From Nemertoderma westbladi (lineage: Eukaryota; Animalia; Xenacoelomorpha): a stretch of DNA of 55,994 bases. Location of the stretch: the NCBI GenBank assembly GCA_032718475.1, contig JAUCBJ010000610.1:1-55994 (forward strand), given 5' to 3'. A program made the position numbers and the translations under genes. Numbering within the stretch: position 1 is the stretch's first letter; each line of letters starts with the position of its first letter. This document shows, in pieces, positions 7,229 through 44,313 of this stretch. The notes below the pieces were generated by a model that was given only the letters and a program-made list of their open reading frames with translations, did not search any database and was not told the DNA's origin.

Positions 7229-8376
7229 TGTAAAAGCTTTTGCGTAATTAACCGGTTATTTCCCCTTAAAGTACTCTGTAGTTGGTTTGCCAGGCATAAA
7301 AAGGCCGTGTCCTTGCTGTACTGGTGTTTTAGAGGACATAAAAGTCATTTCTTCTGTATTTGTACTTTAGAGGACATAATCCGCAATCTCGTGACGCGAT
7401 AAGCTAGATACTCTTGAAAACAGTGTCGCTACCATGACGACGGCTAGCAGCTGATATTGCCACGTCGACATTTCTTTGTTTCTTTGTTCTCTCGTTGTTC
7501 GGTTGACCAATCAGAGCGTTTTTTGTCTCTGTGTTGGAGGTGTATACAGAACTCAGAAGTTCAGTGTTATGTTTTTGCCCAGAGCCTAAGAACACTGGCT
7601 TTTGGCACCTCCGTGTTTTCAGTCTTTAGTCTTACATTAGTAGGCTTAATTATAGAACGTATATCTGTTATCACAAGTTAACTCATTCACTTAATAATCA
7701 TTTATACATTAATATTACTGCTTTTAATGTCGGTTATTCGTTATATTTGCTGATGAAATATTATATCGGAATACTGATCAATAGTCAGACACCCCACCTT
7801 CTTGATATACTAAAGGTTAGAGAGACCGGTTACAGATAAACGATTGCGACCTATGTTAAGTGGTTTGAAGTGAATCTAATGCTATTTCATATGCCCAACA
7901 TAAATTGTCTGTTGCTCTCTTTATACGTGACTAAATTTAGTGAAGGTCGGCAGATTAGTGTGCAGTATTGTGCAGCATTGTGTATGAGTGTAACTGATAA
8001 CAAAGCATCTCCTAAAGAATGCGCCATATACGTGAATCTATAGCCTTTTCGTTGTGTCTAGTTTAAGTCATAACTCTGTTTACATATTTAGAGCGCCATG
8101 TCCTAAAGGAACTGTTGATATTTCCCGAAAGTGAATAATATTTGTCAGAGATTATATATTACGATCAGTCGAATAATACAGTAGGCTTACACCATCAATC
8201 ATTAAGCTCCGAACTCAGTCTCCCGGGTATATCCAACGGGTGAATGATTGCGCATAGACTGGCTTCGGCTAATGTAGTGTATTAAATACTCGTCATAGGC
8301 TAAAGACTATCTATCATCCAAAAGACATTCTAATTTAGGCAGGTTAAACTGTCAAAGGTCTTCAAAAGCGCAAACA
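7229..8376 (+). repeat. 5' LTR of BEL/Pao-1
   Basis: Direct repeat of 21777-22924 with about 6 substitutions seen by eye; TGTAAAAG...GCAAACA. Confidence 0.97.
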
Positions 8377-8387
8377 ATAACAGATAT
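8377..8387 (+). promoter_or_regulatory. Non-tRNA primer-binding site of BEL/Pao-1 (complementary to LTR 7661-7671)
   Basis: ATAACAGATAT abuts the LTR and has no TGG; its reverse complement ATATCTGTTAT is at 7661-7671. Confidence 0.7.
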
Positions 8388-8659
8388 TGCTTCTGGATTG
8401 TGGTGTAAGCAATCTAGTCGAAAGTACCGGTCGACCGGTAACCAGTAGGCCTGACTGCCTGATCATCCGGACCGGTACCTACAGTAGTACAGGTACAGCA
8501 GTATTATTCGATTGTGGTATTGTATACCGGTAGGCTGTTTAAGAGATTAGGGACTGTACACCCCTTGTTTCTTTTGGAGCTTACTTATTTCTGTCAGTTT
8601 TATTTATTTGTAGGCCAGTATTGAGCAGAAGGCGTGTAAGCCTGCTCAGATTGTACAGA

Positions 8660-9230
8660 TAATTTGTAGGCTCGACTGTTGGCTAACTGTTGATATGGTC
8701 TGAACGGATTGCAGTGCATGTAGAGTGTATGTCCGATAAAGAACGGTTAGGAAGTAGGGGCAGCCATAGCTGTAAGGTAAACCCCCATCTAAAGAATAAG
8801 TCGTACTACTGGGTTAGAACGCATACTACTTAACCATTTCGGAGTCTACATGTCCTGTGGTTTATTTAGGCTTGATAGGAGTCCGCCAGCGTTTGGTCTG
8901 TACTTTGTTTGTGTAGTCTGTACGGGTAGCGTATAATTTTATTTAGGTAATTTGTAGGCTGGATAGTTGTCTGGCTGCTGTTGGGTTTGAGGAAATTTCG
9001 GTGTGTGTAAAGCATCTGTCCGATAAAGAACGGTTAGGAAGTAGGGGCAGCCATAGCTGTAAGGTAAACCCTCATCTAAAGAATAAGTCGTACTACTGGG
9101 TTAGAACGCATACTACTTAACCATTTCGGAGTCTGCATATACCGTGGTTTGTTTAGGCTTGATAGTAGTCTGTCAGTATTTGGTCTGCATTTTGTTTGAG
9201 TAGCTTGTACGCGTAGCGTAATATTTATTA
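8660..9230 (+). repeat. Tandem ~287-bp duplication in the BEL/Pao-1 5' leader
   Basis: Core 8730-8847 matches 9017-9134 with 1 mismatch; the flanks are diverged but alignable. Confidence 0.9.
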
Positions 9231-10563
9231 TTCAGAGTTTATGCGATTATTCGCAACATTCATTCCCCAAGTTTATTCCTACAGTAATTGTGTTTGTTAT
9301 ACATACCGTTATAGTTAAACTAACCCCGGTACTACATCAGGGCTGCTCGGCGTAGGTAAAGACTGGTGATTTTGTGCACCGGTCACTCCAGCAGATGCCG
9401 TGGTTCTTTTAGCTGTTCAAGTATTTTTAACTACTAATTATTTGTCGTACAAGTACTTGTACCTAATTTAGGATTTAGTGTACAGTGCTTTCCGAAAGCA
9501 ATTAGTGTGTAGGCAGTGTATTTGTGTTGTAAAGTGGTTAATAGGCACGTTGGTTCTGGTAGACCGCGGTAATTAACTTCTAGGTAGGGACACTCCGTGA
9601 TACATAACGTAGTACCTATAGCGATACGGTTATAGGTCGTCAGGCGGTGGTATTTTCCTATCTGGACAACGCAGTATATTTACTACTACTTATTATTTTC
9701 AAATACCGTAGTAACCTGTCCGTTGTAATAACCAGATATTCTAACCCTTTGTTAGGCTGGTTAGTAGACTTCTTGTAAAATTACCCTAAAAAATTCGTAT
9801 TTGTGTATTTGTAATTAAATTTTGTGTTTATTTAGAGATTGTAATCTCAACCAGAATTGTACGTAATTTGTAGTATTAAGTAACTTAGGTAAATTAGAAT
9901 TATTTGTTTTAGTGTCTAACAAGTAGCACTCCACTGAGAGCGCACAGCTTATACGTAGTGACTCCCCCAGAAATAATAACATTTATTTCAAACATTGACA
10001 AAACCCATTAAACGGGTATATATATATATTATAAATCAACTCAAACGATTTATAAATAGTAGGCCTGCCATACAACAATTAGGAACAATATAAGTTGGAC
10101 TACTGCTTAAATAACGGTAATAAAGTAAGTTAAAGTAACCAAGTAACCCTTAAAATTCAGAAATTCAATTATTTAAAATAATTGATATACCGGTATTTGC
10201 AATAGGCCTATTATATATTTATATACTTGTGCTGAAATCATACCGGTGTTCTGTAATTAATTCTAGTTAATAATTATACTTATATATACTATAAGTGTAA
10301 ACTGCATACCGGTATCCACGATAGGCCTATTATATATTTATATATATTTGTGCTAAAATTATATACCGGTATTTTGTGAAAAACCTAGTCTGTCATAATA
10401 CTTATATATACAATAAGCATACCGGTATTCTAATATTATATATATATCACGCTACACTGAGTAGCAGTATCGGTAATTAATTACTAGGCTAGCAGTTAAT
10501 TCTGAATTACTAGACTTGCTTAGACTGTAATATAGCAGTAGGCATTCAACTGTGCAAACCAAC

Positions 10564-13500
10564 ATGTCTGATACTAAGCAGAACCTGTCAGACAGTTTAT
10601 TAGATGTAACTATCTGCGACTCAGATAGAGGTGTAGAACCGTCTAGTCCTAAGTTCAGTTCACCTCCCACTGTGAGGAAGGTCATCCCTCCAGTAGTAAT
10701 AACAGAACCTAGGCTGGTCCAACATCATAGGTCTATCATAGGCACTCGAGCCCAGGTCAAGCGGGACCAAGAAGCAGCGGAACAGCAACAACCCGCGAGC
10801 CAAGAACTTATTTCTCAGCGGCCCGACCGCTCCAGTAGTGAAGATACTGTAGAGCTGACACCCGAGCGTGGAGCAAGGATGTCTGATGCGGTTTATTCGG
10901 ATCCCCTTCTCATCCTTCCTGCAGCCGTACTCACTAGGTTATTGATCGCGGTGGAAGAACACCAGATCGATTGGGCGAGAAGTAAGCGATCAACTAAAGA
11001 TAGTTATGAGGGATACACAAGGGAAGAACTGACGTCTATGGTCGAGTCGCAATGGAACTTCCCCGGACCCGGACTCCCGTTTGATTTATCAGAAGCTGCC
11101 TGGGAAGACATACACCGGATGGGAGTAGCCAAGGAAACCATCGATCCAGCTGTGTGGAAGAGGTCTGCAGCCGGATACGCACAGGGATTCTTCAGCTCTA
11201 TGGAGCGAGTAAAAGAACAACTGTTTCAACAACCTCAAGGACCTCAAGAGCAGGGACAACTGCTTTATCAAGTTAGAGAAAGAATTCTGCGAATCAGGCT
11301 AATATTATCAGCCTTTGAAGAGGCTTCTAAAAGAAGACAAGACACGTCGTTGCAAGTTGCCGTAAAGACTTGGTTTCAACGGGTGAGTCGCCAGGTTCAA
11401 GGAACAGCTCAGTGGAAAGCTCAGCTGGAGGAACGCTCAACCCATGGAGAATCAACAGACGCTACTTTTTCCCAAGTGGAAAGTGAAGCGACGGCAGAGA
11501 AACCGCGTAAGAGGGATGCCATTGACATCTATCTGTCAGACTATCAGCGTTTTTTGGGAGATGAAGAGTTGAGGAGAAGGCTAGATGGACTTAGCCCTAA
11601 TAGTGAAGGAGCCCAGCGTGTGTTGGACGCAATTGATGTGGATAGGTTAGCGGTGAACCAAGCTAAATTCGATGAACAACTCCGCATCGCTAGAGACCAA
11701 GAAGAAAGGGTGAAGAAAAAACGCATAGAAGAAAGAAAGAAAGCAGCAGTAGCAGCTGCAGAAGCCGAAAGGAAAGCAGCCGAAGAGGAAAGTAAAGCAG
11801 CCGAAATGGAAAGAAAAGCGGCAGCGGCAGCGGCAGAGGCAGAAGCGAAAAGAAAAGCGACAGCGGCAGAGGCAGAAGCGAAAAGAACGGAGCGGATAGC
11901 GGCTGAAGAGATTGCCCAATTAGAATTGGAAAATATTCAGGAGAATCAAGACTGCATAAATAAACAGTTAACAGCTAGTAATATGCAGATGATGAATCGA
12001 TCTACTCCCAAAAGACAGGGATATACATCATCTGAGGAAGGCGATACCACCGATACTGAAGGCAAAGGAAATAGATCTCACCTAAGCAGACGTAAAAGAA
12101 CATCCCACCGTCAGAAATTGCCTGATTTGCCTCCAGCTGTTAGAAGGCAACTAAATAACAACTTAGGTAGTACAGAACCCACAGACCAAATAATTACAAT
12201 AGAGAGACTCCCTACTATAGTAGATGAGCCTGAAATAATTAGGCCTGTTCCCGAAGCCACCCTTTCGGTCGTAGAGACACCTGTACTCCCTGAACCTACC
12301 TCTCAATTCCCTTTGCACAGCACTAAGCTACCTGTGCCCAGCAGAACAGCCCATGAAACAGTTCATGCCCTGGACTCCGAGCGAAATATTCAAGATTTGT
12401 CGCCCGTTGTCCCTCGTCCGCCCGCTACAACGTTGGCGAATCCCGCTTCGGCGGTTGAATGGGTGGATGAGAGACGACGGGGGATGGATCTCCTGCTCGG
12501 ACAGATGCAGGAGACCGTTCAGCAATTCAAGGGCACAGTAAGGGAAAGTAGATTAGAGTTGCAAGAAGTGCAGCAAAGTATCGCGCTAGAACGCGATAAA
12601 TTAGTAAATACACAAAAGGGTATACCAACACCCCCCATAACAATGTGTCAACCTGTTAGGTCTGAAGTATCTCATGCGCAAGGTGTGGAGCCTACACGCA
12701 TCTATACTGCTAGCGAAGTAGAAACTCCTATAGTGAACCCTATTAAGAGTAATTATAGACCTGTTGATAATGATATTCCCTATAGACCGGATCATAATCC
12801 GAGAAATTTATATACCGATAACTCGATATTAAATAACACGATGGCCCAAGAAAGTTTTACGCGTCAAATGGCTAGAACCGAAGCCCGGCAAGCAGTAAAG
12901 GTGGGAGAGATCGTCAAGTTCAATGGAGATGAGATGAAATGGTTACCTTTTAATGAATATTACAAAGATAACATACAGAACTCTGTGCTATCTAATGGAG
13001 AGAAACTTAGGTTCCTCATCGAGTGCTTGGAAGGATCTCCCAAGTTAATGGCGTTAAAGTTTATTGGACATCCAGACGGATTAAGACAAGTTTGGGATAC
13101 ACTAAACATCAGGTATGGTAATAGGAATAACATAGCTGGGTATTTGTATGCAAAGTTAGTGGCGCCCCGAAAGTTTATTAGCAGCGGAATTATAGAGTTT
13201 TCCGATGAGATTCAGGAGATCTGCAGACAATTAGATTGGCTAGGTAAGTCTCATGAGTATCAGAATGCTATGGTTATTAGAGCAGTGGCTTCTACTTTAC
13301 CGAAGGGTGGAGTAGGTACACGCTGGGATAAGAAAGTGTTATATATGATGGAACAACAACGACGAGACCCTACCATGGCTGATCTCATGTCATTCCTAGA
13401 TGGAGAAGTGAAATTACAGCTCCTGAAACTGTCCAGAGAGAAGACACCGGAAAACAAGGTAAGTGAAAAACCCTTCGCTAGGAGAAAGGTAACACCAGTG

Positions 13501-14229
13501 TGTTATACAGATGATGGCGAAAGCCAGACTTCTCAAGGAGAAGATAGCGGGAAAGACACTGACAGATCTTATTACATAAATAAAATGCCTAAAGATCAGG
13601 TAAGTAAATTCAAGTCTCGAACAAATGACAGGAGAGAACAGGTAAGAAAAACTCCTCCTACGTCTCCCAAGAGAATTCAGGTGAGAAAGCCCGAAGAAAA
13701 AGCAAGTGTACACAATGTTACTCAGAGTAAGGTAAGTAACATCAAACCGAAATGTGCGCTATGTGATGGGACCCATCGCTTAAATATGTGTGATGAATTT
13801 CTAAAGAAATCATTAACTGAGAGACGTGAAGTCATGTGGGACAAGCGGTTGTGCTATAATTGCCTCAGACAAGGACACCAACGGCGAACCTATTACTCTG
13901 ACACAAGATGTGCCAAGTGCGGTGCGAAACATCATATCTTGTTGCACACTGAATTCGAGCGAAATAGTCCGAGTCAGGTAAGTGATTCCGAACTACATGT
14001 CCAATTCAGTGATGTGAACGACACTGATCAATCTGAGATGGAAGGATTCTATACGGATGAGTTCTCCGACGAAAACGAATCCTGTTACATGATAAATACC
14101 ACAGTGTATCGAGCACTCATTTATGAAAAAGATACAGACATTGACCTCGCTCTAACTACTTCTGATCGACAACCATCTTGGAAAGCGCCAACTTCCAATG
14201 TAGGGATTAGAGAATTTCCTGTGGTATAG
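10564..14229 (+). CDS. gag: BEL/Pao-1 Gag (coiled-coil N-terminus, DUF1759-like capsid region, Cys/His knuckles)
   Basis: Motifs FNGDEMKWLPF...KLRFLIECLEG...L.IRYG, CALCDGTH..C and CYNCLRQGH....Y(C lost)....CAKCGAKHHILLH. First ATG at 10564; ends at an in-frame TAG. Confidence 0.9.
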   Translation: MSDTKQNLSDSLLDVTICDSDRGVEPSSPKFSSPPTVRKVIPPVVITEPRLVQHHRSIIGTRAQVKRDQEAAEQQQPASQELISQRPDRSSSEDTVELTPERGARMSDAVYSDPLLILPAAVLTRLLIAVEEHQIDWARSKRSTKDSYEGYTREELTSMVESQWNFPGPGLPFDLSEAAWEDIHRMGVAKETIDPAVWKRSAAGYAQGFFSSMERVKEQLFQQPQGPQEQGQLLYQVRERILRIRLILSAFEEASKRRQDTSLQVAVKTWFQRVSRQVQGTAQWKAQLEERSTHGESTDATFSQVESEATAEKPRKRDAIDIYLSDYQRFLGDEELRRRLDGLSPNSEGAQRVLDAIDVDRLAVNQAKFDEQLRIARDQEERVKKKRIEERKKAAVAAAEAERKAAEEESKAAEMERKAAAAAAEAEAKRKATAAEAEAKRTERIAAEEIAQLELENIQENQDCINKQLTASNMQMMNRSTPKRQGYTSSEEGDTTDTEGKGNRSHLSRRKRTSHRQKLPDLPPAVRRQLNNNLGSTEPTDQIITIERLPTIVDEPEIIRPVPEATLSVVETPVLPEPTSQFPLHSTKLPVPSRTAHETVHALDSERNIQDLSPVVPRPPATTLANPASAVEWVDERRRGMDLLLGQMQETVQQFKGTVRESRLELQEVQQSIALERDKLVNTQKGIPTPPITMCQPVRSEVSHAQGVEPTRIYTASEVETPIVNPIKSNYRPVDNDIPYRPDHNPRNLYTDNSILNNTMAQESFTRQMARTEARQAVKVGEIVKFNGDEMKWLPFNEYYKDNIQNSVLSNGEKLRFLIECLEGSPKLMALKFIGHPDGLRQVWDTLNIRYGNRNNIAGYLYAKLVAPRKFISSGIIEFSDEIQEICRQLDWLGKSHEYQNAMVIRAVASTLPKGGVGTRWDKKVLYMMEQQRRDPTMADLMSFLDGEVKLQLLKLSREKTPENKVSEKPFARRKVTPVCYTDDGESQTSQGEDSGKDTDRSYYINKMPKDQVSKFKSRTNDRREQVRKTPPTSPKRIQVRKPEEKASVHNVTQSKVSNIKPKCALCDGTHRLNMCDEFLKKSLTERREVMWDKRLCYNCLRQGHQRRTYYSDTRCAKCGAKHHILLHTEFERNSPSQVSDSELHVQFSDVNDTDQSEMEGFYTDEFSDENESCYMINTTVYRALIYEKDTDIDLALTTSDRQPSWKAPTSNVGIREFPVV

Positions 14230-17200
14230 GTAAGGGTCCACGGACCAAAAAGGAGTTATGTAGTGAACGCCCTCCTTGACTCCGGTAGTACAGGAACATT
14301 CATCGACAAAGAGCTAGCCGAAGACATATTCGCTGGACAACCCAAGTTCCGAACTAAGCTAAACATGTCAGGGATTATGCAAGTTTGGAAATCCACAGTA
14401 ACAGCGGATTATTATGTAGGTGCGTTGTCCACCCCCCAGGACGAACTAGGAGAACATAGCATAAGGTCAGTGAAAATGGTGGCTATAAAGAACTTCGCTA
14501 CTACTCAAGCAGACCTTTATAATTGGGACGAGGATGAGAGCATCCAACATCTCAAGATACCTCGATTCCAGACAGATTATCCTGGAGTGCAAATACTCAT
14601 CGGCCAAAACGCGCATGAGGCGCTCGAGACATTGGAGAAACGGCCTGCTCAACCGCAGCCACTACAGACCTATGCGGTTAGAACTAGAGTAGGTTGGTAC
14701 TTTACTGGCCCTTCCCGTAGAACTCTCATAGAAAGATTACCGAAAGATCAGGTATATCAAGTGCGAGAATGGGAAGTTGAGAACAGTGAGTTCGACGATC
14801 CAACTGAGGGAACTCCATACTCCTCAGACAACGACGATATACATCAACTCTTTGATGAGGAGAATGCCATCGATCTCCTTAAGGAGAGCGAGACTTGGCA
14901 AAATCAAGTGAACTTATGTCAACTCCTTCTCCCATCCGAGCGAGACGACTATAACGACGAGCTTAATGACGTCATTGAACGTTATAATGCCAAGACTCGG
15001 GATGAACACGCCGTGAGATTCTTTACTCAAGAGGTCGTAGAGCCCAACTCCTACGATAAGGCCCTATCGGTGGAGGAAGAAAGAGCCAAGCAGATCCAAG
15101 CGACAACTACTCGTTTTCTTAAAGATCAAGGTAGATATGAGATCGGTCTTCTTTTCCGAAAGCGAGAACCAAAGTTCATTAACAACAGACCTTTGGCGGA
15201 GAAAAGAATTGCTCAACTACATCGACGCCTTACGGCAAATTCTTCAGCTAAAGAAATGTATCAAACGCAGTTGAAGAAGTTTATTAGCAAGGGATATGCG
15301 GAGCTACTACCGGAAGAAACACCCATAACTGAGAGAACGTATTATTTAACTCACCATTACGTTCCCAAACCCGGTAAACCCCATGAAGTACGAGTGGTGT
15401 TTGACGGTTCCGCCCTTTATATGGGCCAATCTCTTAATTCTGAATTGTTACCCGGACCCAACTTACTCCAATCCTTGTTGGGAATACTACTAAGATTAAG
15501 ACAATACTCCATTGCTTTCGCCTCAGATATAGAAGGCATGTTCTTACAAGTCAAAGCGCTGGATAGGGATCGAGATAGCCTACGATTTTTGTGGTGGCCT
15601 GAAGGAGACCTCAATAAGAAACCTGTGGAGTATTGGATGACCATCCAAGCCTTTGGGATAATCTCGAGCCCTTCAAACGCCTGTTCCGTGGTGCGCACCA
15701 CTGCGGATGACAACCGAGACGCCTTCTCTAAAGAAGTGATCGACAATATCAAACGAGACATCTACATGGATGATAATCTGAAGTCCCTTCCATCAGTCGA
15801 AGAAGCCATTGAGGTCGCTAAAGGAACGGTGGAATGCTTAAAGAAAGGTGGATTTCGATTAACTAAATTCACCAGCAACTCCCGTGAGTTTCTGGAGTCG
15901 ATCCCGGTAGAAGATCGAGGAACAAAAGACCTAGATCTAATAAAGGATGATCTCCCAGAAACTAAGACCCTTGGTTTGAAATGGGACACAGAAAGAGATA
16001 TCCTGTTTTTCCAACTAAAACAGCGAGATAATCCAGTTCGGACTAAACGGATTTGTTTAAGTATCCTGAGCACTTATTTCGATCCATTGGGATTTATTAG
16101 CCCAGTTATATTAATTGCTCGGAGTTTAGTACAACAAATGTGGCTTGAAAACCACTCATGGGACGATCCACTTAAGGGAGAATTATTAAAGAAGTGGATG
16201 AAATGGGAAGATTCTCTACCAGCCATCGAAAACTTTATAATTTCCCGTTCATATTTTGGTCATGTTCTCCCTACGTATTCATATCAACTCCATGTGTTTG
16301 GAGACGCCAGCAATATGGGAATCGGTATAGTAGCCTACCTAAGGGTGGAAACTCCGGACGGAATTAAAGTCGCCTTGGTTACCTCTAAGGCATTTAATAA
16401 ACAACAAGTTGAAAGTTCCTCGAGCGGAGTTAAAAGCGGCTCTATACGCTACAGCCATCGGCCGGAATATAACAGAACAGATCGACTATCCCCTGGAGAA
16501 AACTGTCTATTGGACCGACGCTTTACTCGTGTTGGAGTATATAACCAATGAAGTCTGTCAGTTCAGCGTCTTCGTTACCAACAGAGTAGCTATTATACTC
16601 AGTCGCACGACGATGGATCAATGGAGACATTGCCCCGGAACGATTAATCCAGCAGACATCGCTTCCAGGGGAGCAACTCCACAAGAACTGGTAGATACTC
16701 CAGACTGGTTAGGTGGACCCGACTTCCTCTACAAAGAAGAAGAAGAATGGCCTCCTCATCTTACTACAGCAGAAATTAGACAGGCCAAGGGAGCGGAGAA
16801 AGTCAAACCTAAAACTCAGGCGAGTAAATCGAAGTTATTCAAACCCACAGTGGATCTGTCTGTACTACATACTTCCGGAGACGACGCTTTGGATCAGAAA
16901 CCCACAGCCACAAATAAACCCATTGTGGAAATCCGTGATAAGGATTGGAAATCTGGTATACCAGACGTCTCGCAAGGACTCTCACCTCTTCTGCAGAGAG
17001 CGATACATCACTACAGTTCCTGGAATCGGCTCTGTAAGGCTGTTACATATTTAAAGAGATGTTTTCACCATCACTACTCTGGGATGAAAACAAAGGGTGA
17101 TACCGCTCCAATCACATCAGTGCAGGTCCATGTTATTAAAGATCTTCCCCCATATAAGATACCCACCAGGTTTCTGAAGGAGAAGATCAGTTATCAGGAG

Positions 17201-18648
17201 CATGAAGAAACCAACAAACAGATGCTGAGACTCTTACAATGCTATGAAGATTCCGATAAGTATTTCCTGTTGTTGAGAAATCCACAGATGCGCTTAAGGG
17301 ATCGTTTCTCTAGCACAATGATAGATGGGTTGATACGTGTTGGAGGAAGGTTAACGAATGCCCCATTATCCTTTGATACTAAGTTCCCCATACTCATTAG
17401 AAATCTTGAAATACAAGTCAAGATGATTGTAGATGTTCACAGCAAACTTTATCATGCTGGTAGAGAACGAGTTCTTAGTGAAATTCGAACTCGCTATTAT
17501 TTTTATAAACCCCGTAGAGCTCTGAACCAAGTTCTTAGGAACTGTATACCCTGTAGGAAAGCATTCAGTAGGCCTTTAACACAGAGAGAGGCAGAATTAC
17601 CTAGGGAACGAGTAAGCTTTTATGAACCACCCTTTACTAATACCGGTGTGGATTTATTTGGCCCTATTGAAGTATATCGTGCTAGGACTATAGTCAAGAG
17701 ATGGTGTGTAATCTTTGTTTGTATGACTTGTAGAGCCATCCATCTCGATATGGTGAACGATTTATCTACCAACAGCTTTCTATTAAGCTTACGACGACAG
17801 ATCGCTCGCTTTGGCACTAGTAACACGATGAGATCTGATAAGGGAACAAACTTCATTGGTGCCAACAATGAAATCAAAGCTTACGTCAAAGATTGGAACC
17901 AAAGACAGGTGGACGACCAACTACGAGTAACAGCGTCTAGTTGGACCTTCAACGCCGCCGACGCCCCTTGGTGGGGAGGAAGTTGGGAGAGATTAATAAG
18001 AAGTGTGAAGACGGCATTTCATTTTATAGTGCCTTGTCGCGCTTATCTCACCGACGAACTTTTGCGGACGTTAATGGAAGAAATCGCTGCCTATCTCAAC
18101 GAGAGACCGCTTATGCCAGTCTCATCGAGTCCCGATTCCCTGGAGGCGCTAACACCCGCGCACTTCCTGCTGAAGAAACCTGTAGCCATGCTCCCACAAT
18201 CGGAAATCACAGACGGAGACGAATACTGCCGACAAACTTGGCAACTCATGCAGTTGTTATCCCGTCGTTTCGTGACCATTTCGAAAAACATTATCTGCCC
18301 ACGCTACAACTTCGAACTAAGTGGTTTGCGCAGCAAGAAAACGTCAGCGCTGGAGACATGGTGCTTATTGTGGATGTGGATCTTCCACGTAAGCGGTGGC
18401 AGACAGGTCGTATAATCGAGACGCACATCTCGGATGACGGTTTGGTGCGATCGGTAGAACTCGTCGTCATGCGACGTAACTTCAAGAAACCGGGAATTGT
18501 CTTCGAGACGCAGCAGCTCAATCGCCCAGTGGGTCGTTTATGTTTACTGGAAAGAGACAGAGAACTCTCCGGAAACTATGGGAGACAAGATACTCTTCCC
18601 ACGACCACTTCCCTAATCCAACAAACATCTAGGGACTCCCCAACTTAA
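14230..18648 (+). pseudogene. pol: BEL/Pao-1 Pol (PR, RT, RNase H, IN, C-terminal DUF5641-like domain) with two frameshifts
   Basis: Motifs LLDSGS, RVVFD, YMDD, HVFGDAS, PRAEL, NPADIASRG, H..LYH..C..C, GVDLFGP/SDKGTNF/WERL and DGLVRSV...RPV.RL. The frame changes at ~16395 and ~18270. Confidence 0.92.
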
Positions 18649-21697: not shown

Positions 21698-21776
21698 CTG
21701 TTTAGAGTATTTTTATATTTTAGAAACTGTGATTTGTTATATTTTATAGACTTAAATACCCATTTTCTGGGAGCGG

Positions 21777-22924: not shown

Positions 22925-22929
22925 GAATG

Positions 22930-32313: not shown

Positions 32314-32343
32314 ATCATGTGACTCTTGTTTGGGAGGGGGAGA

Positions 32344-32565
32344 TAGATAATGTTTACAGTACTGTATGTTTTACATAACTCAATTACTGTGGTTATTGTT
32401 ATGTACCTGTAGGCTCACCACATGTATGACAGTACTAACCTGCACTGCATGTGCACGTATGTATTATTCATATTCAGACTTTAGTAATACAACTGTACTA
32501 GCGATCATTGCGATTACTCGTAATGACTTATGATAATATTCGCTATTATGCATCATATTTATCTA
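32344..32565 (+). repeat. Gypsy 3' LTR
   Basis: Follows the PPT; identical to the 5' LTR. Confidence 0.96.
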
Positions 32566-37300: not shown

Positions 37301-40300
37301 CCGAAATTGAAACAATACCTCTATAATGGAGTTGTAAAAATTGGGTCCCTCCATTAATTCTGAATTGAGACTCATTCCTTTATATTGTGCCGCCGCGTTA
37401 TTTACCACCCTCAACTTACCAGGTTTGTTGGCGTTCCAGACGGGATGTGTTGGCACATAGTACTTACGTGGACCATCAGGTAACAATTTTTCAGCTTCTG
37501 TAAGTCGTCGGGCATACCCTTTCGCTTCATATTCATCAAATGTGGCTTGATATTTTTTATGATCAGCCGGGATTTTAAGTAATTTACGCTTGATCCATCT
37601 CAGCCTAGTCAAAGCTAATTGTTTATTATTTATTAGGGGTTTATCTTTGTTTAACCACAACATTCCTACGTAGTAATGACCGTCTATGAACTTTGTTGTC
37701 TCTCTTAGAATTTTCTCAGATTGTATGTCTTGTACAGATTTGTTTTGCAGTCGTGTAGGACAATAATATGCTTCAGAATCCCAAAATTTCATCAGTAAGT
37801 CATGGGTAACTTCATCTGATGGGCTATTATCATTCCACAAAGGACAACATTCTAGATGATTTACTGATACTTGAGCTTTACAATATTTTAAGTCATCGGG
37901 ATTTTCGTCAGTAACGTCATCAGTTATGTCATCATATACATCATTCAAACGCCATCTGCAAGGTTGTTGTACACATTCCATCTGCTCAACAAAGTCATAA
38001 TTTTCACTTCTTTCAGCCTTACACGTATGGACCTCCAAATCTGCGTGACTGGCGTCATGGTTACTGCTGACATCACTTGTTACTTGTACTGACGGCAAAC
38101 GCCGTCCATCACATAATGGGCCTACCAAAGTCCAACCAAATGGCGTTTTAATTGCGTGGGGGTTATTAATCTCATCATGGGAAGTGGGTCCCCATACGGA
38201 TTTTAGAACTTTGTGAGCCTGGGGGTTATTCATTCCAATTATCATTGAAATACTATCAATATCTACAGTAGGATAAGTAATGTTTACATTCTTAAGGTAA
38301 GTCAGCTGGTCTAATGACCACCTACTAGGTCTAACGTAATTTACGTGAAGATTAGGTATTAACATTACGTCTCTTAGGGATAATGTGAAGTGACAGTCCT
38401 TTTGAATAGATCTAACAACACAAGCACCCTGTTCCACTGTCTTGCCTTCACGTGTTAGTATGGTGTTAAGTGATACATCTACAGGTTCTGTATCCATGTC
38501 TAGTAGCTCACCTACAGTCTTGTCTATTAGCGTCCCTGTGGAACCATCATCTAACAAAGCAAACGTAGTTATTAGGCGTCCCGTTTCAGTATTCTCAACT
38601 GAGAGTGGTACTACACCAAGGAATACAGCCTTTATGTCTAACCCCTTTGGATTCAAATCATGATTTAATGCCATTGTAGCTACGCTTTTGTACGCCCTAT
38701 GATCTGTATTAGAGAACTGACTAAACTTCATAGATGTAGTGTTAGCCGCACTATCACGTTGTATAGCATAATAGTTTCTGAAAAGGTTGTCTGTCTCTTC
38801 CTCTGTCTTACATGGTTCAGGATGCAAAACCCTAGCGTGTCGTTTTCCACATCCACTTGCTGTGCAACGATATTTAGATCTGCACTTTTTCCGCCAATGC
38901 CCTTTCCGGAGACATAATGTACATAACTTATGTTCAGCCACGAAATCATAACACGCGCGGCTACCAATATCCTGTAGTTGAGTGCACTGAGCAGTAAAGT
39001 GAATTTTTTGGCAAAATAGACATGGCGACATTTCTGCCGCTGTTGTATTTACATTAATGTCTGTGTCGTCGACTAAGTAACCATAGTCACCTACAAGTGG
39101 GTTGTCTTGGGTAAATGGTTCGTCGTTATTTGTCTCCATTCCATTCCATTCGTCGGTCACATGGAAACTTGACATTGTACTAGTCACCTCAGCTTCCGTG
39201 GGCATTCTAGAAGGTTTTTGTATGTCTAATACTTCCCGGCCAGGTGAAAAACCTTTAAATTTATCTCCCATTTTGCGCCTTAAAATGTCACCCGCTGCCT
39301 GAGGACCATATAACGGACATGTAGCTACATTTGCTTCCTCGTCTAGGAAAACCATCAACTCATCCATTCCGGGGTCACGGCCACACCTAATCCTAAATTT
39401 ATTTACCTGCCTAGCCCAACGTATTCGTAATGGATTTGCTAAATTTGCCGCTATATTCTGAATAAATTCAGGATTATTTAAATAGTAATGACATTGTAGG
39501 GTCTGTAAAATATCCATTGTGCGTCTTACATCGTGAGAGTACTTAAGTAGTTCTTTAGGGGAAGCTACGGGATATCTACATCGAGTGACGTCGGCAACAA
39601 CTGCTTTCATTACCAATGCTGGTTGTCCATATCGTCTTTCTAATGTGTTCCATGCCATAGCATACCCGTCAGTCATGCCTTCAAAGTGTTCGATTAAATC
39701 TAAAGGTTCTCCTCTAACATATGTTATTAGATATCGAAGTTTTACCTCATCTGGAACCTGCTTAGCATCAACCTGCGTACGAAACCTGTTTTTAAATCCT
39801 AAAAATTTCTTTGGGTCTCCGGTAAAAGGTGTTGGATCTAACTTTGGGGCCTCTAATGAAAGAGCTAATTTTTCGAACAAGGCATGCTGTTGGTTTGCTG
39901 TAGTATGGTTACATTTTTGTAGCGGTCGTCGACATTTGGTAGACTTCGATGAACTATTTTTTACGTTGCTATGACTACACTTAAAGTCCTCACTACTATT
40001 GTCAGAAGAATTATCATCGTCATCTGTATGTCTAACATGGTCTGGGTCAGGGTCACCATAAGGTATGGAATGTCTGTACGGGGCTAAATCAACATCTGGG
40101 CCAGAGTTTCCTATGCATTCCGGGTTGTCTGTGACTATACCTCCATATGCATCCTGCGGTACACATGTATTCTCAGTAGTATGTCGCCTGGAGTTAGATT
40201 TTCTGGACTTACCCCGATTAGGCTGATCTACTGATTGTGGGTGCTTACTTATTGAGCCGACAGTACGCAATTGTGCATAAAATGCTTCGCCTCGCGGTCC

Positions 40301-42565
40301 TGGTGGCACTTTAAATTGTTCAGGGGGTCGTGATGGAGTAGTAGGTTGAATTTCAAACTGTGTGTATGGTCTGTCGTGAAGTCTATACGCACTGGCCACA
40401 CAAGGCCTATTGTATGTCGCTCCGCTGTCTTTAGGGATTGATACATTATGTTTCTTATTAACAGGTAATTGTTGGGTACTGCGCTGTGGTGACGTCATTG
40501 AATCATCAATTCGTGGCGTCATTGTGCTTCCGGGTTTAGGATGGCCGTGAGGTGGATGAGAAACACTTGTAAATTGTTTATGTTCGAGCGGCTGCTGGGT
40601 TGCCATCATGGGTGTCATCATATACTGAGCTAATTTGTTAATAGATTGCGTCACATGTGATACAACCTCCTCAAGTTGCTGATGAGTCACAAGGCGGTTC
40701 TCTGGAATAGTAGACAAATTACACTTTTGTGAGTCTGTTCTGTATATCCCTTTTCCTTTACGGAAAATTTTTGTCTTTTGTGAGTCCGCAATACGTGGTG
40801 GAAGTTGTCTAACACCTTCATCTGCCGAATTCTCTGACAGCTCATCATCATTATCTTCCTCTGTATCAGTTCTAATCATATGAGGCACTGAGTTAAAGGT
40901 TAACTTATTACGTATTAGTGATGATTCTGTATGTGTGGTGTGAGGTGTTGTAATTGTTGTCATTGTCGAAGTCGGGGGTACTACAACTTCTACTGGGTCT
41001 GCTACTTCTACAGGGTCTGCTACATCTGTGATTTCTGTGATAGCTGTAACAGGTCCATTGGCGAATGGTCTGGGGGCATCACTCCAGAATATGGATTCAG
41101 TAGGAGTGGATTGCATAGAAGGTAAAGCCAGGGACGCTATATCCACAACAGTGTCAGTCTCGATGGCTTGCTCTACTTGCTGCCTATATTCTTCTAACTG
41201 GCGCTGGTGTCGAGCATGTTGGAGATCCTTTTGGTCTTCAAAATGTCTTATACGCTGGAAAATATCGTTTTTCTTTTGCATTTCTTTAATCCTATCACGT
41301 TCAGCTTGCTCTACCTGCAATGACTTACGATGAGCTTCATCCAACTGCCTCTTAGCTGCCTGTGAGGCTTCTTCCATCTGTCGCCTTGCTGCTTCCTCTT
41401 GAAGTTTCGCAGCTTCCTTAGCCTCTTCTACCTGCCTCTTAGCTGCTTCCATTTGTAGTTTCGCAGCTTCCTTAGCCTCTTCTACCTGCCTCTTAGCTGC
41501 TTCCATTTGTAGTTTCGCAGCTTCCTTAGCCTCTTCTACCTGCCTCTTGGCTGCTTCCATTCGAGCACTAGCTTGCGCAGTTGCAAGTCTATTCTCGACC
41601 AGAACCCGTTCCCGTTCAATCTGTTGAGCCATCATCATGTCCTCCTCGTCATGTCGCTTAGATAGAACAGAGAGGTTAGCCTCGGCTATGCGTCTCATTC
41701 GAGATGACACTGTGGATCCAGTGTCAGATGCCCCCGACCCTGCTATAGAACACCTACCTACACTATTGGGCCTAATTGGTAAATTTAGTGTAGGTCTGTC
41801 TACGTCTGGGCTGGTTACAATTGGCGTAAGTGTGCGATTCACGTGCTGACTAGAATCTGTTGCAAACGGAATAGGGTAACTATCCCAGGCTAAAGAAGCA
41901 ATGGGTGTACTTACGGCTGAGGTTGTTTGGGTACTTACTCGGGATGTAATTGGTTCCAACTTAGAGCTTACCCATTCTGAAAATATGGTATATCTATCCT
42001 TACACTGTACATACCTTTTCTGAGCTCGTTGATATTCATCGACAGAGCCACCCTGGGTCTCAAAATACTGAGACTGATGGCGGTATTGATCTACAATCTG
42101 AATCCACCTGCTGGCAAGCCTATCGACTTTTCGCCTCATATCTACAGTACACTGACCTTGTTGAGTTGTCATAGCGACCGATTCCAGCTCCGATATACCA
42201 GCCTCCATATTGTGGTATAGTTGGCCCAGTCCACGATTGATAGTCTGGATGTCGACCTTCCTTGCTGGGACGTCGTCAGATTGGCGTTGGCGGTATGATT
42301 TCCTTCGTGCGCCGCCGGTATTCGCACCAGGGTCGGCATTCTCTCGGCGTAGTGAGCGCTGTGACGAGTGTCTCTGACTCAAAGCGACCCTTGAGCCAGA
42401 GTTCTCGCTTCCGTGAGAAAGTTGGTTGTTGTCTAAGGTTATGGTGGTTAACAGTGGTGGTGGTGGTTCAATATCAGCTGTAGTCACTATCGTCGTGGTG
42501 ATGTCGACGTTGGTTGTCTCCTCTCTAGCAACCACTGAACCAGGGGGGCTATGAATAGTGGACAT
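34301..42565 (-). CDS. gag-pol: BEL/Pao-2 Gag-Pol polyprotein, 2754 aa, intact
   Basis: FTGDP..F; knuckles CLFCQKIH and CTLCLRKGH....C...C...C...H...LH; PR LLDDGS; RT YVDD; RH HFCDAS/PRLEL/NPADIASRG; IN H...GH..C..C, GVDLFGP, SDQG, WERL. Confidence 0.97.
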   Translation of the reverse strand: MSTIHSPPGSVVAREETTNVDITTTIVTTADIEPPPPLLTTITLDNNQLSHGSENSGSRVALSQRHSSQRSLRRENADPGANTGGARRKSYRQRQSDDVPARKVDIQTINRGLGQLYHNMEAGISELESVAMTTQQGQCTVDMRRKVDRLASRWIQIVDQYRHQSQYFETQGGSVDEYQRAQKRYVQCKDRYTIFSEWVSSKLEPITSRVSTQTTSAVSTPIASLAWDSYPIPFATDSSQHVNRTLTPIVTSPDVDRPTLNLPIRPNSVGRCSIAGSGASDTGSTVSSRMRRIAEANLSVLSKRHDEEDMMMAQQIERERVLVENRLATAQASARMEAAKRQVEEAKEAAKLQMEAAKRQVEEAKEAAKLQMEAAKRQVEEAKEAAKLQEEAARRQMEEASQAAKRQLDEAHRKSLQVEQAERDRIKEMQKKNDIFQRIRHFEDQKDLQHARHQRQLEEYRQQVEQAIETDTVVDIASLALPSMQSTPTESIFWSDAPRPFANGPVTAITEITDVADPVEVADPVEVVVPPTSTMTTITTPHTTHTESSLIRNKLTFNSVPHMIRTDTEEDNDDELSENSADEGVRQLPPRIADSQKTKIFRKGKGIYRTDSQKCNLSTIPENRLVTHQQLEEVVSHVTQSINKLAQYMMTPMMATQQPLEHKQFTSVSHPPHGHPKPGSTMTPRIDDSMTSPQRSTQQLPVNKKHNVSIPKDSGATYNRPCVASAYRLHDRPYTQFEIQPTTPSRPPEQFKVPPGPRGEAFYAQLRTVGSISKHPQSVDQPNRGKSRKSNSRRHTTENTCVPQDAYGGIVTDNPECIGNSGPDVDLAPYRHSIPYGDPDPDHVRHTDDDDNSSDNSSEDFKCSHSNVKNSSSKSTKCRRPLQKCNHTTANQQHALFEKLALSLEAPKLDPTPFTGDPKKFLGFKNRFRTQVDAKQVPDEVKLRYLITYVRGEPLDLIEHFEGMTDGYAMAWNTLERRYGQPALVMKAVVADVTRCRYPVASPKELLKYSHDVRRTMDILQTLQCHYYLNNPEFIQNIAANLANPLRIRWARQVNKFRIRCGRDPGMDELMVFLDEEANVATCPLYGPQAAGDILRRKMGDKFKGFSPGREVLDIQKPSRMPTEAEVTSTMSSFHVTDEWNGMETNNDEPFTQDNPLVGDYGYLVDDTDINVNTTAAEMSPCLFCQKIHFTAQCTQLQDIGSRACYDFVAEHKLCTLCLRKGHWRKKCRSKYRCTASGCGKRHARVLHPEPCKTEEETDNLFRNYYAIQRDSAANTTSMKFSQFSNTDHRAYKSVATMALNHDLNPKGLDIKAVFLGVVPLSVENTETGRLITTFALLDDGSTGTLIDKTVGELLDMDTEPVDVSLNTILTREGKTVEQGACVVRSIQKDCHFTLSLRDVMLIPNLHVNYVRPSRWSLDQLTYLKNVNITYPTVDIDSISMIIGMNNPQAHKVLKSVWGPTSHDEINNPHAIKTPFGWTLVGPLCDGRRLPSVQVTSDVSSNHDASHADLEVHTCKAERSENYDFVEQMECVQQPCRWRLNDVYDDITDDVTDENPDDLKYCKAQVSVNHLECCPLWNDNSPSDEVTHDLLMKFWDSEAYYCPTRLQNKSVQDIQSEKILRETTKFIDGHYYVGMLWLNKDKPLINNKQLALTRLRWIKRKLLKIPADHKKYQATFDEYEAKGYARRLTEAEKLLPDGPRKYYVPTHPVWNANKPGKLRVVNNAAAQYKGMSLNSELMEGPNFYNSIIEVLFQFRQHRVVFACDIEQMFHQVRTYDCDSESQNIIWWEGDVEPNNPADYIIYQMLVHMFGKKDSPCAATYALRQSAEDHKDKFPPNVIEAINKHFYVDDGMSGAESVTEAVRLALGLIECLRLGGFTLTKFMSSSKEFLKYIPQSKRVEAELDLNFDELPVSRALGIVWCPERDCFLFKPSRKSHALTKRGCLVCVASIYDPLGLVAPIILQGKQFLQKLWGLKLNWDDVLEQSLASEWLQWYNQLHQLENLQIPRHYFANTISTDTDVLQLHHFCDASLTGYGCLSYIRKVSPSGHITCSMVYAKTRTAPLKKVSIPRLELQSAVLLVRSHRQFAASITLQIHSNNVICWSDSTSVLCQIANESRRFETYEANRIEEIRRYTAPSQWRHIPGTKNPADIASRGAEPLDFITKYQDCWYGGPQFLRQPESRWDSSLTQTNPMKDAEIPPEAGLRKDKPAKHSKSKVVATIDVQPFSTLSKLLTRFSSFQLLTRVVMRFLIKFHHNRQKLNRQRGEIVTNIDNDDLHTRCLAQAKLKIIQLIQQAEFSGVIDAIRNSKPKSIPRSIAILNPIIADDGLLRMGSRMGLIQTYSYEITHPIILPTKHHLTTVIIRDIHYSCGHLGIDYTIAKVRRLYWVNALRKVVKAIIHNCIFCRKRFAQPGKQMMAPIPMVRTIGYIPVFTNVGVDLFGPLYVIRGRGSDKRYGVLLTCMSSRAVVLDLSMDYSADSLICVLRRFICNHAGVENIYSDQGSHFGGSETELAELMAEAKDIGIPDEIVGKISWYFQTPTASHHGGVWERLIRTTKHTLLALMEKRRVQHRLVSEEVLRTTLAEVQYLINDRSLSPLNDDVTSNEILTPNHLLLRRSTVLPNSNRLLHELYDGNELNYKTMWRKAQFLANQYWTIWRRTYLENLMTRQKWLRPHRNFAVGDLVMLTDSNSKRFNWKVARISEVLPSADGLVRTVHVRTATAIKCPRTKKWKILISILCRPIQKICLLEMALDEAKV
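41399..41560 (-). repeat. 3 x 54-bp coding repeat (MEAAKRQVEEAKEAAKLQ) in the BEL/Pao-2 Gag coiled coil
   Basis: Visible in both DNA and translation. Confidence 0.92.
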
Positions 42566-43419
42566 TATTTGTTAGCGATTATAAATATTTCGCAGGTCTG
42601 CCAAAATTAATTAATTTAATTAAATTTTTCAGATTTTTACACGGATTTTTTTTTTTTTTAAGTATTTATTTGTATAAACTTAAGTTACCCTCTTGACTGG
42701 CAATCTGAAAAAATAACTTTATATTTAATTAAATGTAATAAATTTGTTAGTGATACGCCACAAATGCATATCACTTATGTTATCAATAGGGGGATTAGAG
42801 ACAATATTTAGATAATAAATTATCTGGCTAGCTAAACCTGAATGTTGCCTAGACTTAGCTATACAATGTGTGTAATATTATATAGAAACGAAAATATAGC
42901 ATTACAGTAGCTTTAAAACTAATCTATTGTTGTCGGTGGTGCCTCCTACAATAGAAAAAGAGTCAGAATATAAATTATATACCTAACTTTCAAAAAGAAA
43001 ATTAAGATCATAAAAAGTTGCAAATTATACTTTACGGGATTCAGACCTGACCCCGGTCCTAAAAGGGGCCTGGTTTACTAGTAAACACGTAGTAAATCAG
43101 GATAATCGTAGCGGTACCTTCTTACCCTCCGGCGATCGCGTGGAATGTAATATCCTCTTGCAGACCAATCTGGCCCAAAAGGAGTCCTAGCCCAATCAGA
43201 TCTCCGGTCCCCGAGACCGGTTCGTAGTGATTTGGGACCACCGAACAAGGAAGGAGAAGGTAGGACTAAACGCTTGAGAGGCTAGGAAAATGAAGCAAAA
43301 ATACAGCCTACAGTACCGATTGCACCACAATCAATAGCATAAGGTGATACTTAGCCAGTTTCCTTTTCGTCTCAGTTTGTAGATGACTTTCGAAACAGAA
43401 CGAGTTTGAGGAAGAGTTA

Positions 43420-43691
43420 AGCGTTGAGAAACAGCGTTGAGAAACAGCTTTGAGAAACAGCGTTGAGAAACAGCGTTGAGAAACAGCGATGAGAAACAGC
43501 GATGAGAAACAGCGTTGAGAAACAGCGTTGAGAAACAGCGTTGAGAAACAGCGTTGAGAAACAGCGTTGAGAAACAGCGTTGAGAAACAGCGTTGAGAAA
43601 CAGCGTTGAGAAACAGCGTTGAGAAACAGCGATGAGAAACAGCGTTGAGAAACAGCGATGAGAAACAGCGTTGAGAAACAGCGCTGAGAAA
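43420..43691. repeat. 13-bp minisatellite (GAGAAACAGCGTT, ~21 copies) in the BEL/Pao-2 5' leader
   Basis: Read directly; variant unit ends are GTT, GAT, TTT and GCT. Confidence 0.97.
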
Positions 43692-43713
43692 ATTGAACAC
43701 TTATCCGCATTCA

Positions 43714-43725
43714 ACTATTTCTTAC
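43714..43725 (-). promoter_or_regulatory. Non-tRNA primer-binding site of BEL/Pao-2 (complementary to LTR 43934-43945)
   Basis: Sense GTAAGAAATAGT abuts the LTR; sense ACTATTTCTTAC lies at 43945-43934. Confidence 0.72.
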
Positions 43726-44313
43726 TATACACAATTCCGGGTGTAATCCGGGCTCCTTTACTAAGTGTTGCGGGAAGTGTCAACTTACGCAGGAGATTAG
43801 TTCGTTAGTGGATACATTGTCTTTATACGCAGTTTCAGTTAGTACCAATAAAACAAGAGTTAATAATGCTTAGAACAATAAAAGTGTATATTTTAATGTT
43901 ACAGTAGTTGCAATATTGATAGATAACAAACTGGTAAGAAATAGTAGCCACTTTGAGGAGTGGTACTTGCCTGGGAACTAAATAATATACCGTTAGTCCT
44001 AAAATCATCTACAACAATTATGTTATATAAACTCAGCTTTAAATACTGGTAAACCAATAATGAATCCAATTTAAGCATTTAACCAATCACAGGGCGAGGA
44101 ATCGCACTGTGCAAATAGAACCAACAACAGTAAGCTGACATTGTAGTTAACTGTTCATTATGAAGCCTAACACAGATAAAACTGTAGCCATGGTTACCGT
44201 TTACCGTTCAGTGTATAAGTAAAGGGCCATTAAGGTGGTTCTTAAATTCAATGCGCCGCAAATTTCCTTATTATGAATAGAAATTGATAATTCAACAACC
44301 GGATTCGTGTACA
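43726..44313 (-). repeat. 5' LTR of BEL/Pao-2 (sense TGTACAC...GTGTATA)
   Basis: Matches the split 3' LTR; imperfect 15-bp terminal inverted repeat. Confidence 0.96.

Follow-up and report, generated by a model that had tools for sequence, protein, structure and literature searches.

How do the LTR retrotransposons of this locus prime reverse transcription, when none of them carries a tRNA-type site beside its 5′ LTR? Three such elements, two with BEL/Pao proteins (BEL-1 and BEL-2) and one Gypsy, were delimited in the window (the whole 55,994-nt stretch of DNA analysed here) by repeats and target-site duplications (TSDs).

BEL-1, plus strand:
7229..8376, 5′ LTR, 1148 bp, ends TGT...ACA; TSD GAATG at 7224-7228
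7661..7671, LTR segment at LTR position 433-443 that matches the primer site in reverse complement; candidate self-primer
8377..8387, primer-site position, 11 nt adjoining the LTR, without TGG
10531..18648, gag-pol with DUF1759, Peptidase_A17, integrase H2C2 and DUF5641
21763..21776, polypurine-tract region
21777..22924, 3′ LTR with the second segment copy (22209-22219), then the TSD at 22925-22929

BEL-2, minus strand:
43726..44313, 5′ LTR, 588 bp, ends TGT...TATA
43934..43945, LTR segment at LTR position 369-380 that matches the primer site in reverse complement; candidate self-primer
43714..43725, primer-site position, 12 nt adjoining the LTR, without TGG
34301..42565, gag-pol, one open frame of 2754 aa
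32566..33019, proximal part of the 3′ LTR, with a segment copy at 32640-32651
26410..26548, distal part of the 3′ LTR, past the Gypsy insertion; TSD GGAAT next on the minus strand

Gypsy, plus strand:
26549..26770, 5′ LTR, ends TAG...CTA, sitting in the BEL-2 3′ LTR; TSD TTAAT
26690..26713, LTR segment (outer arm 26690-26698, 6-nt bulge, inner arm 26705-26713)
26771..26788, primer-site position, 8 nt exact plus a 10-nt extension, without TGG
27111..32228, gag-pol, one open frame with RT, RNase H and integrase
32332..32343, polypurine tract
32344..32565, 3′ LTR with a segment copy at 32500-32507

All three elements are young and recently mobile, with intact TSDs and LTRs that are 99.5-100% identical: 99.5% for BEL-1 (1148 bp each), 100% for Gypsy (222 bp each) and, for BEL-2, whose 3′ LTR is interrupted by Gypsy (33019-32566 plus 26548-26410), one mismatch in total. 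The gag-pol frame is intact in two of the three (BEL-2 and Gypsy), and that of BEL-1 is interrupted by one in-frame stop and two frame changes. The Gypsy RT is a distant match to that of Ty3 (E 2.5e-34), and among the element's named homologues, unclassified proteins of Mytilus, Diadema, Palaemon and Elysia come closest.

BEL-1 and BEL-2 both have paired LTRs, a polypurine tract, a TSD and the protein make-up that defines BEL/Pao (DUF1759, Peptidase_A17, integrase H2C2 and DUF5641 in PR-RT-RH-IN order, with the same domains in their homologues); in domains, order, LTR size and polypurine tract they agree with the ICTV family Belpaoviridae. However, the ICTV profile, in the portion available, describes priming by a host tRNA through an 18-nt site that pairs with the 3′ end of tRNA-Arg or tRNA-Gly (PMC8742986), whereas no TGG lies within 16 nt of either LTR, so the two elements are named BEL/Pao by their proteins only. 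The initial annotation had reported no TGG beside any of the three 5′ LTRs, and this was borne out, the nearest lying 17 nt 3′ of the LTR in BEL-1 and 86 nt in Gypsy, with none in the initial 326 nt of BEL-2. The whole window yielded neither a tRNA gene nor an Rfam match.

What adjoins the LTRs instead, as the same annotation had proposed and as was confirmed, is the exact reverse complement of a segment inside the LTR: 11 bp in BEL-1 (8377-8387 against 7661-7671), 12 bp in BEL-2 (43725-43714 against 43945-43934) and 8 bp in Gypsy (26771-26778 against 26705-26712; 9 bp counting the last LTR base), where pairing resumes beyond the 6-nt bulge between 26690-26698 and 26779-26788. Its further statement that the three sites are mutually unrelated did not hold for the two BEL sites, which have 7 of 11 letters in common. 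The match begins exactly at the LTR edge in both BELs, and an offset of -1 yields 6 bp only. Among control anchors at internal positions, the observed length was reached by 3 of 13340 for BEL-1, 0 of 10646 for BEL-2 and 22 of 5513 for Gypsy; the segment occurred in 163 of 50000, 39 of 100000 and 361 of 100000 order-2 Markov LTRs, respectively, rates that are inflated because the model was trained on the LTR itself. The pairing might be a functionless product of chance or of copying, that is, short inverted repeats of AT-rich sequence or template-switch inversions. AT-rich sequence does give more chance matches, unanchored scans have a high background, and the Gypsy match taken alone, at its control rate, would leave room for such an origin; yet the pairing occupies the same position in three of three window elements, and the relatives described below weigh further against it.

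Eighty BEL loci in 62 families were surveyed, and 14 families had a 5′/3′ repeat pair. Among these 14, five have a contiguous helix (10-13 bp; 0 of 300 random anchors each), six have one only across a predicted GT-AG intron (10-14 bp across a gap of 71-186 nt; 0-3 of 300 each), two have TGG (L013/L033 and L037) and one (L064/L067) has neither. The helices start at an offset of 0-6 from the LTR edge, and their letters vary by family together with the LTR. Although the splice test required only GT and AG, the donors read GTAnG in 6 of 6 split families, against 15 of 292 GT sites in the same LTRs. At 39 additional loci, whose LTR ends were guesses, there were 18 matches versus 3-10 in eight shuffled sets, and 12 started with GT versus none in the shuffled sets. 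These family counts are not independent, since the relatives share ancestry, and two loci (L002 and L034) were not blind, as their LTR ends were moved by eye by 2-10 nt after the first results; at L024 and L034 the helix was seen with the 3′ LTR copy only. A locus at first taken as TGG-type (L015) was excluded from the tRNA-type count, as a candidate split helix lies 76 nt upstream; its LTR end is provisional. Unanchored inverted-repeat scanning and guessing of LTR ends from terminal repeats, where polypurine-tract calls were often wrong, were too noisy for counts, and a pattern search of viral contigs gave 59 and 2 matches, none of which was confirmed. Sequencing runs were searched for 33020-43000, within BEL-2, and no RNA run was listed as containing it.

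The TGG-type loci group with insect BEL/Pao proteins, apart from both window BELs, which are long branches outside the group of insect proteins and TGG-type loci; one split-helix locus (L065) groups beside the tRNA-type rows. A sister pairing of BEL-1 and BEL-2 (SH-aLRT 87-90) was set aside as a meeting of long branches. In the window itself, splice extension was rejected (10 bp in BEL-1, reached by 36 of 300; 6 bp in BEL-2, reached by 128 of 300; none in Gypsy), and the BEL-1 and BEL-2 helices are contiguous, not spliced. No consistent initiator was found at the BEL segments; a (Y)nAG motif ahead of the short helices was considered as one and dropped when the splice test gave a replacement reading.

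Among 17 Gypsy relatives, all four that retain both LTRs and flanks have a 13-14 bp helix at the LTR edge (including the last LTR base), starting in each case at an initiator-like TC|AGT or TC|ACT, with letters that vary between families; L089, L092 and L081 (LTR end read by eye) agree with the others. The helix start was also considered as a splice acceptor, U12-type or AG, but there the AG or AC forms part of the pairing and AG is absent from L086/L092 and L081, so this reading was rejected. A MAFFT alignment of the 5′ regions misplaced L081 and the window element and was kept out of pair counting.

The covariation check proposed with the initial annotation thus found pairing kept with different letters in both lineages, and the predicted trait is spread through these BEL and Gypsy lineages in other DNA. 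With helices at the same position in 4/4 Gypsy relatives and 11/14 BEL families, six of which match only across a gap with canonical splice signals that a DNA inversion would not produce, chance or a copying by-product is largely refuted and now highly improbable. The proposal that the elements prime themselves gained indirect support, as the pairing co-varies across the BEL and Gypsy relatives and is missing from TGG-type BEL relatives where examined (L013). Its strict Tf1-like form, with the RNA's first bases as primer, suits the Gypsy relatives, whereas many BEL relatives appear to splice their segment together. We therefore favour tRNA-independent self-priming, at a rough probability of 0.78, as a property of the lineages and not as one established for the host.

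In the proposed mechanism, the segment would lie in R of an RNA made from the 5′ LTR and fold onto the primer site; the RNA would be cut at the 3′ side of the segment, by the element's RNase H if the analogy with Tf1 holds, yielding a 3′ OH; and minus-strand reverse transcription would be primed by this LTR-derived RNA with no tRNA involved. When the plus strand is made, the primer would be copied back into the site, so that segment and site would stay matched from cycle to cycle. In the Gypsy lineage, the RNA probably supplies its own first 13-14 bases as primer, and the window copy has a bulged version. For BEL elements it would be a segment of 10-14 nt, contiguous in BEL-1 and BEL-2, and many relatives appear to splice out an LTR intron to form it.

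Folding favours an RNA start at the segment. For modelled RNA starting there, the mean pair probability of the helix is 0.87-0.94 in BEL-2 and 0.94-0.96 in the four Gypsy relatives; for starts 10-60 nt upstream it is 0.00-0.12 in BEL-2, 0.00-0.05 in BEL-1 and 0.03-0.21 in Gypsy. In the window Gypsy only 8-9 pairs are contiguous and they compete with a local hairpin, and BEL-1, with a loop of 705 nt, reaches 0.51 at best and 0.00-0.16 in the remaining settings. The sole TATA-like box detected in BEL-1 lies 481 nt 3′ of the segment and the sole poly(A) hexamer 609 nt 3′; an RNA starting at that box would not include the 5′ LTR's copy of the segment, which counts against self-priming. A poly(A) hexamer is present in 12 of 14 LTRs and lies wholly upstream of the segment in none. 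In 7 of the 14 the segment is 6-36 nt upstream of it, and in BEL-2 ATTAAA begins 36 nt past the segment.

Such spacing makes short LTR RNAs ending near the segment conceivable, and the primer might then be LTR-derived and yet come from another molecule or end, namely from a separate LTR transcript, short or spliced, that acts in trans, or from the 3′ LTR copy of the genomic RNA. The segment is present in both LTRs, folding in cis is weak over the long BEL-1 loop, and covariation does not distinguish cis from trans. We nevertheless consider this source unlikely: BEL-2 and the four Gypsy relatives fold strongly in cis if the RNA starts at the segment, the described case of Tf1/Tf2 acts in cis according to the accessible portions of two reports (PMC5341516, PMC4600332), and in intron-bearing families inheritance of the intron would need an unspliced 3′ copy, which then could not provide the spliced segment. 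Slightly less probable again is that the helix acts in structure or regulation, as a stem similar to the retroviral U5-leader stem or to a packaging or poly(A)-masking switch, while a tRNA fragment or other host RNA primes and leaves no TGG. Half-tRNA priming without TGG is known in copia lineages (PMC6317226, available text), and the segment is near the poly(A) signal in many LTRs. Against this, the helix sits at the primer-site position itself, at an offset of 0-6; the site letters change with the LTR in each family, where a host primer would keep the site constant; no LTR helix was found in the TGG-site family, tested at L013; and, to anneal, a host RNA would need to open up a perfect helix of 10-14 bp.

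Self-priming by an LTR segment has precedents. Tf1 and Tf2 of Schizosaccharomyces pombe, Tj1 of S. japonicus and the Tf1/sushi and Tcn1 chromoviruses likewise lack a tRNA site and have post-LTR sequence complementary to the LTR, as do all three window elements. According to the text available, the self-primer of Tf2 lies in R, pairs with the site and is cleaved off by RT (PMC5341516), and the same was inferred for Tj1 (PMC4600332, in part). BEL-1 and BEL-2 differ in belonging to another superfamily by their proteins, and the Gypsy in its TA-ended LTRs, bulged helix and gag-pol, where a chromodomain was looked for and no match was found. The BEL relatives' segment, moreover, often spans a predicted splice junction, a feature that none of the consulted text describes. 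Cleavage and priming are demonstrated in Tf1 and predicted for the window elements, which are not chromovirus members and likely work as the Tf1/sushi group does. Outside that group, self-priming of the TAR-lineage Ty1/copia elements Houba and Osr-1 was predicted from the same kind of evidence, by a rule of at least 10 bp of LTR complementarity beginning 0-5 bp past the 5′ LTR (PMC6317226, partial text). BEL-1, BEL-2 and the Gypsy relatives agree with this rule and the window Gypsy, at 8-9 bp, does not; TAR elements differ in being plant members of the copia superfamily. As the trait likely arose there outside Tf1/sushi, a further case is less surprising.

Other elements are alike in part. The window Gypsy resembles the Culex Mag elements (Ty3/gypsy) of the available table in its single frame, size of ~6 kb, short LTRs and TSD of 5 bp, but the primer sites of the Culex elements are for tRNA-Leu, -Ser or -Arg (PMC3286476). 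Fungal GalEa copia and Dictyostelium Skipper also lack TGG after the 5′ LTR, but their papers, in the parts available, report no LTR-complementary segment (PMC5445492, PMC5006619). No self-primed BEL/Pao was found in the literature searched, Repbase being outside the search; in their accessible portions, three papers mention neither a primer site nor tRNA priming (PMC554778, PMC3118150, PMC6238403), and a fourth holds nothing on priming (PMC4402516).

Descent from a BEL ancestor that already had the trait is likely for the BEL elements, and an independent origin is likely for the Gypsy. Taken jointly, the chances are slightly better than even that self-priming is usual across most marine-invertebrate BEL/Pao, with spliceosome-built primers in many families and BEL-1 and BEL-2 as intron-less forms, and that Tf1-like priming was reached independently in a Gypsy clade that has TA-ended LTRs and is widespread in the sea. 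Because the paired segment predicts the site of RNA start or splicing, ordinary transcript data can test the reading, and a splice-built primer would couple reverse transcription to an RNA-processing step. If much of the superfamily primes itself, annotation tools that seek a tRNA site would miss such elements, which may also lie beyond host control by tRNA fragments. BEL/Pao is officially described as tRNA-primed and its replication as poorly understood; should a large share of the superfamily prime itself, that description would be wrong for many animals.

Three complete LTR elements are present in the window: two of the BEL/Pao type (BEL-1 and BEL-2) and a Ty3/gypsy-type element (Gypsy) nested in BEL-2.

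Complete LTR elements of the window
7229-22924, + strand: BEL-1; 1148-bp LTRs, 99.5% identical; target duplication GAATG
44313-26410, − strand: BEL-2; 588-bp LTRs with one base difference; target duplication GGAAT
26549-32565, + strand: Gypsy; 222-bp LTRs, identical; target duplication TTAAT

The Gypsy element interrupts the 3′ LTR of BEL-2 (26410-33019) on the downstream side of the candidate primer segment, and both elements are very young; each carries a single open frame (1705 and 2754 aa, respectively), while the gag-pol of BEL-1 is interrupted by one stop and two frame changes. The pol proteins of BEL-1 and BEL-2 are only about 29-30% identical. Most named homologues of the window elements belong to marine invertebrates, and some to fishes and insects; BEL/Pao elements are reported from animals only (PMC3601003, PMC6238403). 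Both BEL gags are unusually long, and that of BEL-2 contains a 54-bp repeat (41388-41561) encoding a repeated helical 18-residue unit. In BEL-1, the long leader holds a 287-bp duplication (85% identical; 8657-9226), and between pol and the 3′ LTR (20376-21304) two frames of about 206-210 aa overlap; neither has a Pfam match, and they may be the pieces of an extra gene. Directly past the BEL-2 primer site starts an array of 21 copies of a 13-bp unit (43420-43691), and another array, of 34 copies of a 17-bp unit (44322-44894), adjoins the 5′ LTR on its outer side. Elsewhere, a tandem repeat with a unit of ~2.98 kb spans positions 1-6272; it includes a strong palindrome around 218-267 and may derive from a rolling-circle element or a DNA transposon. 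Non-LTR retroelement fragments (RT, endonuclease) plus a 146-bp satellite occupy 23264-23977, 44974-45807, 49370-50098, 51273-51866 and 53718-55590.

In all three elements, the bases abutting the 5′ LTR (the primer site) are complementary to a segment inside the LTR exactly where the initial annotation had placed them, and no TGG lies near any of the three LTRs. The exact reverse complement spans 11 bases in BEL-1 (LTR 433-443), 12 in BEL-2 (369-380) and 8 in Gypsy (157-164), where the final base of the LTR lengthens the helix by one pair and another nine pairs follow past a 6-nt bulge. With each internal position of the same element as anchor, matches as long were found at 3 of 13340, 0 of 10646 and 22 of 5513 positions, respectively; Markov-model LTRs yielded a match in 163 of 50000, 39 of 100000 and 361 of 100000 cases, and direct-repeat controls reached 4-6 bases at most. 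Chance is a very improbable explanation. As read from the sequence, the BEL-1 and BEL-2 primer sites have 7 of 11 letters in common, and all four differences are mirrored in the respective LTR segments.

Relatives in other DNA were then compared; BEL and Gypsy relatives keep the pairing with other letters, the covariation whose absence the initial annotation had said would count against its proposal. For Gypsy, 17 loci (L081-L097) were recovered from genome_contigs, animal-type elements within records titled as bacterial genome assemblies and likely host DNA carried into bacterial bins. In all four loci with both LTRs and flanks, a perfect helix of 13-14 bp runs from the LTR edge, the last LTR base adds one pair, and the letters differ by family. 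The first paired base of each of these helices is the A in TC|AGT or TC|ACT, the metazoan initiator consensus, and lies 83-88 nt from the end of the LTR; this layout is the one expected of a Tf1-like element, whose primer is the first stretch of its RNA. Three more loci, in which the LTR end was placed by eye, are consistent with this: L089 (one G-U pair), L081 (small bulge) and L092, a member of the L086 family. The helix count leaves out the remaining 10, whose 5′ junction is not visible. In the window Gypsy, a TCAG found 90 nt ahead of the LTR end precedes both arms of the bulged helix. A CCTTACC-like motif, possibly a promoter element, occurs 10-35 nt upstream of the initiator-like start (L082 4120-4145, L085 4080-4112, L086 3960-3991, L089 3225-3245). 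The LTRs of the window Gypsy (26549-26770, 32344-32565) and of L082, L085, L086, L087, L089 and L081 start with TA and end with TA or GA rather than TG...CA; therefore, the integrase of this clade likely recognises non-standard ends.

For BEL, a metagenome scan covering 20 of 64 parts of the collection confirmed 482 loci; the best 80 were kept and fell into 62 families, 14 of which (25 loci) have a visible 5′/3′ repeat pair. Five of the 14 (L024, L029, L034, L035, L036) possess contiguous helices of 10-13 bp starting 0-6 nt past the LTR (random anchors, 0 of 300 each). Six others show only 6-9 contiguous pairs, each directly after a pyrimidine run and AG; permitting one GT..AG gap within the LTR lengthens these (L002/3, L007, L025/18, L042/41, L062/70, L016/26) to 10-14 bp, with gaps of 71-186 nt and random anchors at 0-3 of 300. 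The rule required GT only, yet donors read GTAnG in 6/6 of these families versus 15 of 292 GT sites in the same LTRs, and GTAAG in 4/6 versus 10 of 292. The same gap test brought no gain for the contiguous helices of the window BELs. Two families are TGG-type (L013/L033; L037, with a diverged LTR end of uncertain position) and one (L064/L067) has neither TGG nor helix. For L002 and L034, the LTR ends were shifted by eye. In L024 and L034, the helix forms only with the copy in the 3′ LTR. In L024 (1-326, 6694-7103), an acceptor-like run precedes the last five paired bases in the 5′ copy and the whole 11-mer is contiguous in the 3′ copy, as intron loss would give, or the contig may mix two subfamilies. 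Among the other 55 loci, 16 were dropped (<150 nt upstream) and 39 were scanned with guessed LTR ends, giving helix matches in 18 (3-10 in eight shuffled sets), 12 of them beginning with GT (0 in shuffled sets). L065 has, beside its spliced-type candidate, a second long helix (14 + 12 bp) from LTR to leader (267-291, 602-639), and LTRs ending in TA rather than CA occur in BEL-2 (43726-44313, −), L029, L036 and L002.

The position of the sites, their complementarity, the covariation and the absence of TGG are direct observations; that the elements prime with an LTR-derived segment of their own RNA, independently of tRNA, we hold at a probability of about 0.78. The segment would be transcribed into the element RNA, pair in cis with the primer site and be cut at its 3′ side; RT would extend the cut segment, and the primer would be copied back into the site. 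This scheme is modelled on Tf2, for which PMC5341516 describes a self-primer in R that pairs with the site and is cleaved from the RNA by RT. Of the 14 LTRs examined, 12 contain a poly(A) hexamer, which in none of them lies wholly upstream of the segment, as expected if the segment is in R. In RNA starting at the segment, predicted helix pair probabilities were 0.87-0.94 (BEL-2), 0.47-0.58 (Gypsy) and 0.00-0.51 (BEL-1), and with 10-60 nt more upstream they were ≤0.21 for all three; modelled folding thus supports the helix only if the RNA starts at the segment. BEL-1 is the weakest case: the loop measures 705 nt, and the sole TATA-like box and sole hexamer lie far downstream. An LTR-derived primer that acts in trans or comes from the 3′ copy is an unlikely reading. 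Marginally less probable still is a structural role for the pairing, with priming by a host molecule that leaves no TGG.

RT-RNase H trees (108 rows; 53 rows; runs omitting each window BEL in turn) placed the three TGG-type rows on one side of a single branch (SH-aLRT 88), together with insect proteins; their sister is L065, spliced-type by a guessed LTR end. In the rest of the tree, rows of the spliced type (17, with 8 changes) are mixed with rows of the contiguous type (10, with 7 changes); guessed LTR ends underlie 16 of these 27 assignments. The trees are unrooted and quick, and therefore no order of events is claimed. Judged from these sequences, the self-pairing trait is not peculiar to the window's host.

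Self-primed Gypsy families of animals are reportedly described in some Repbase entries, so the Gypsy part may be already known. In the literature searched (Repbase and most subscription journals lying outside it), no BEL/Pao or Mag element was found that is described as self-primed or as using a primer made by splicing; PMC6317226 attributes self-priming to the Tf1/sushi and Tcn1 groups and to TAR copia elements of plants, and PMC8742986 gives Belpaoviridae as tRNA-primed. The LTR/primer-site pairing is a real, conserved feature. Tf1-like self-priming likely operates in BEL/Pao elements and in a marine clade of Gypsy elements, neither of which belongs to the Tf1/sushi group.
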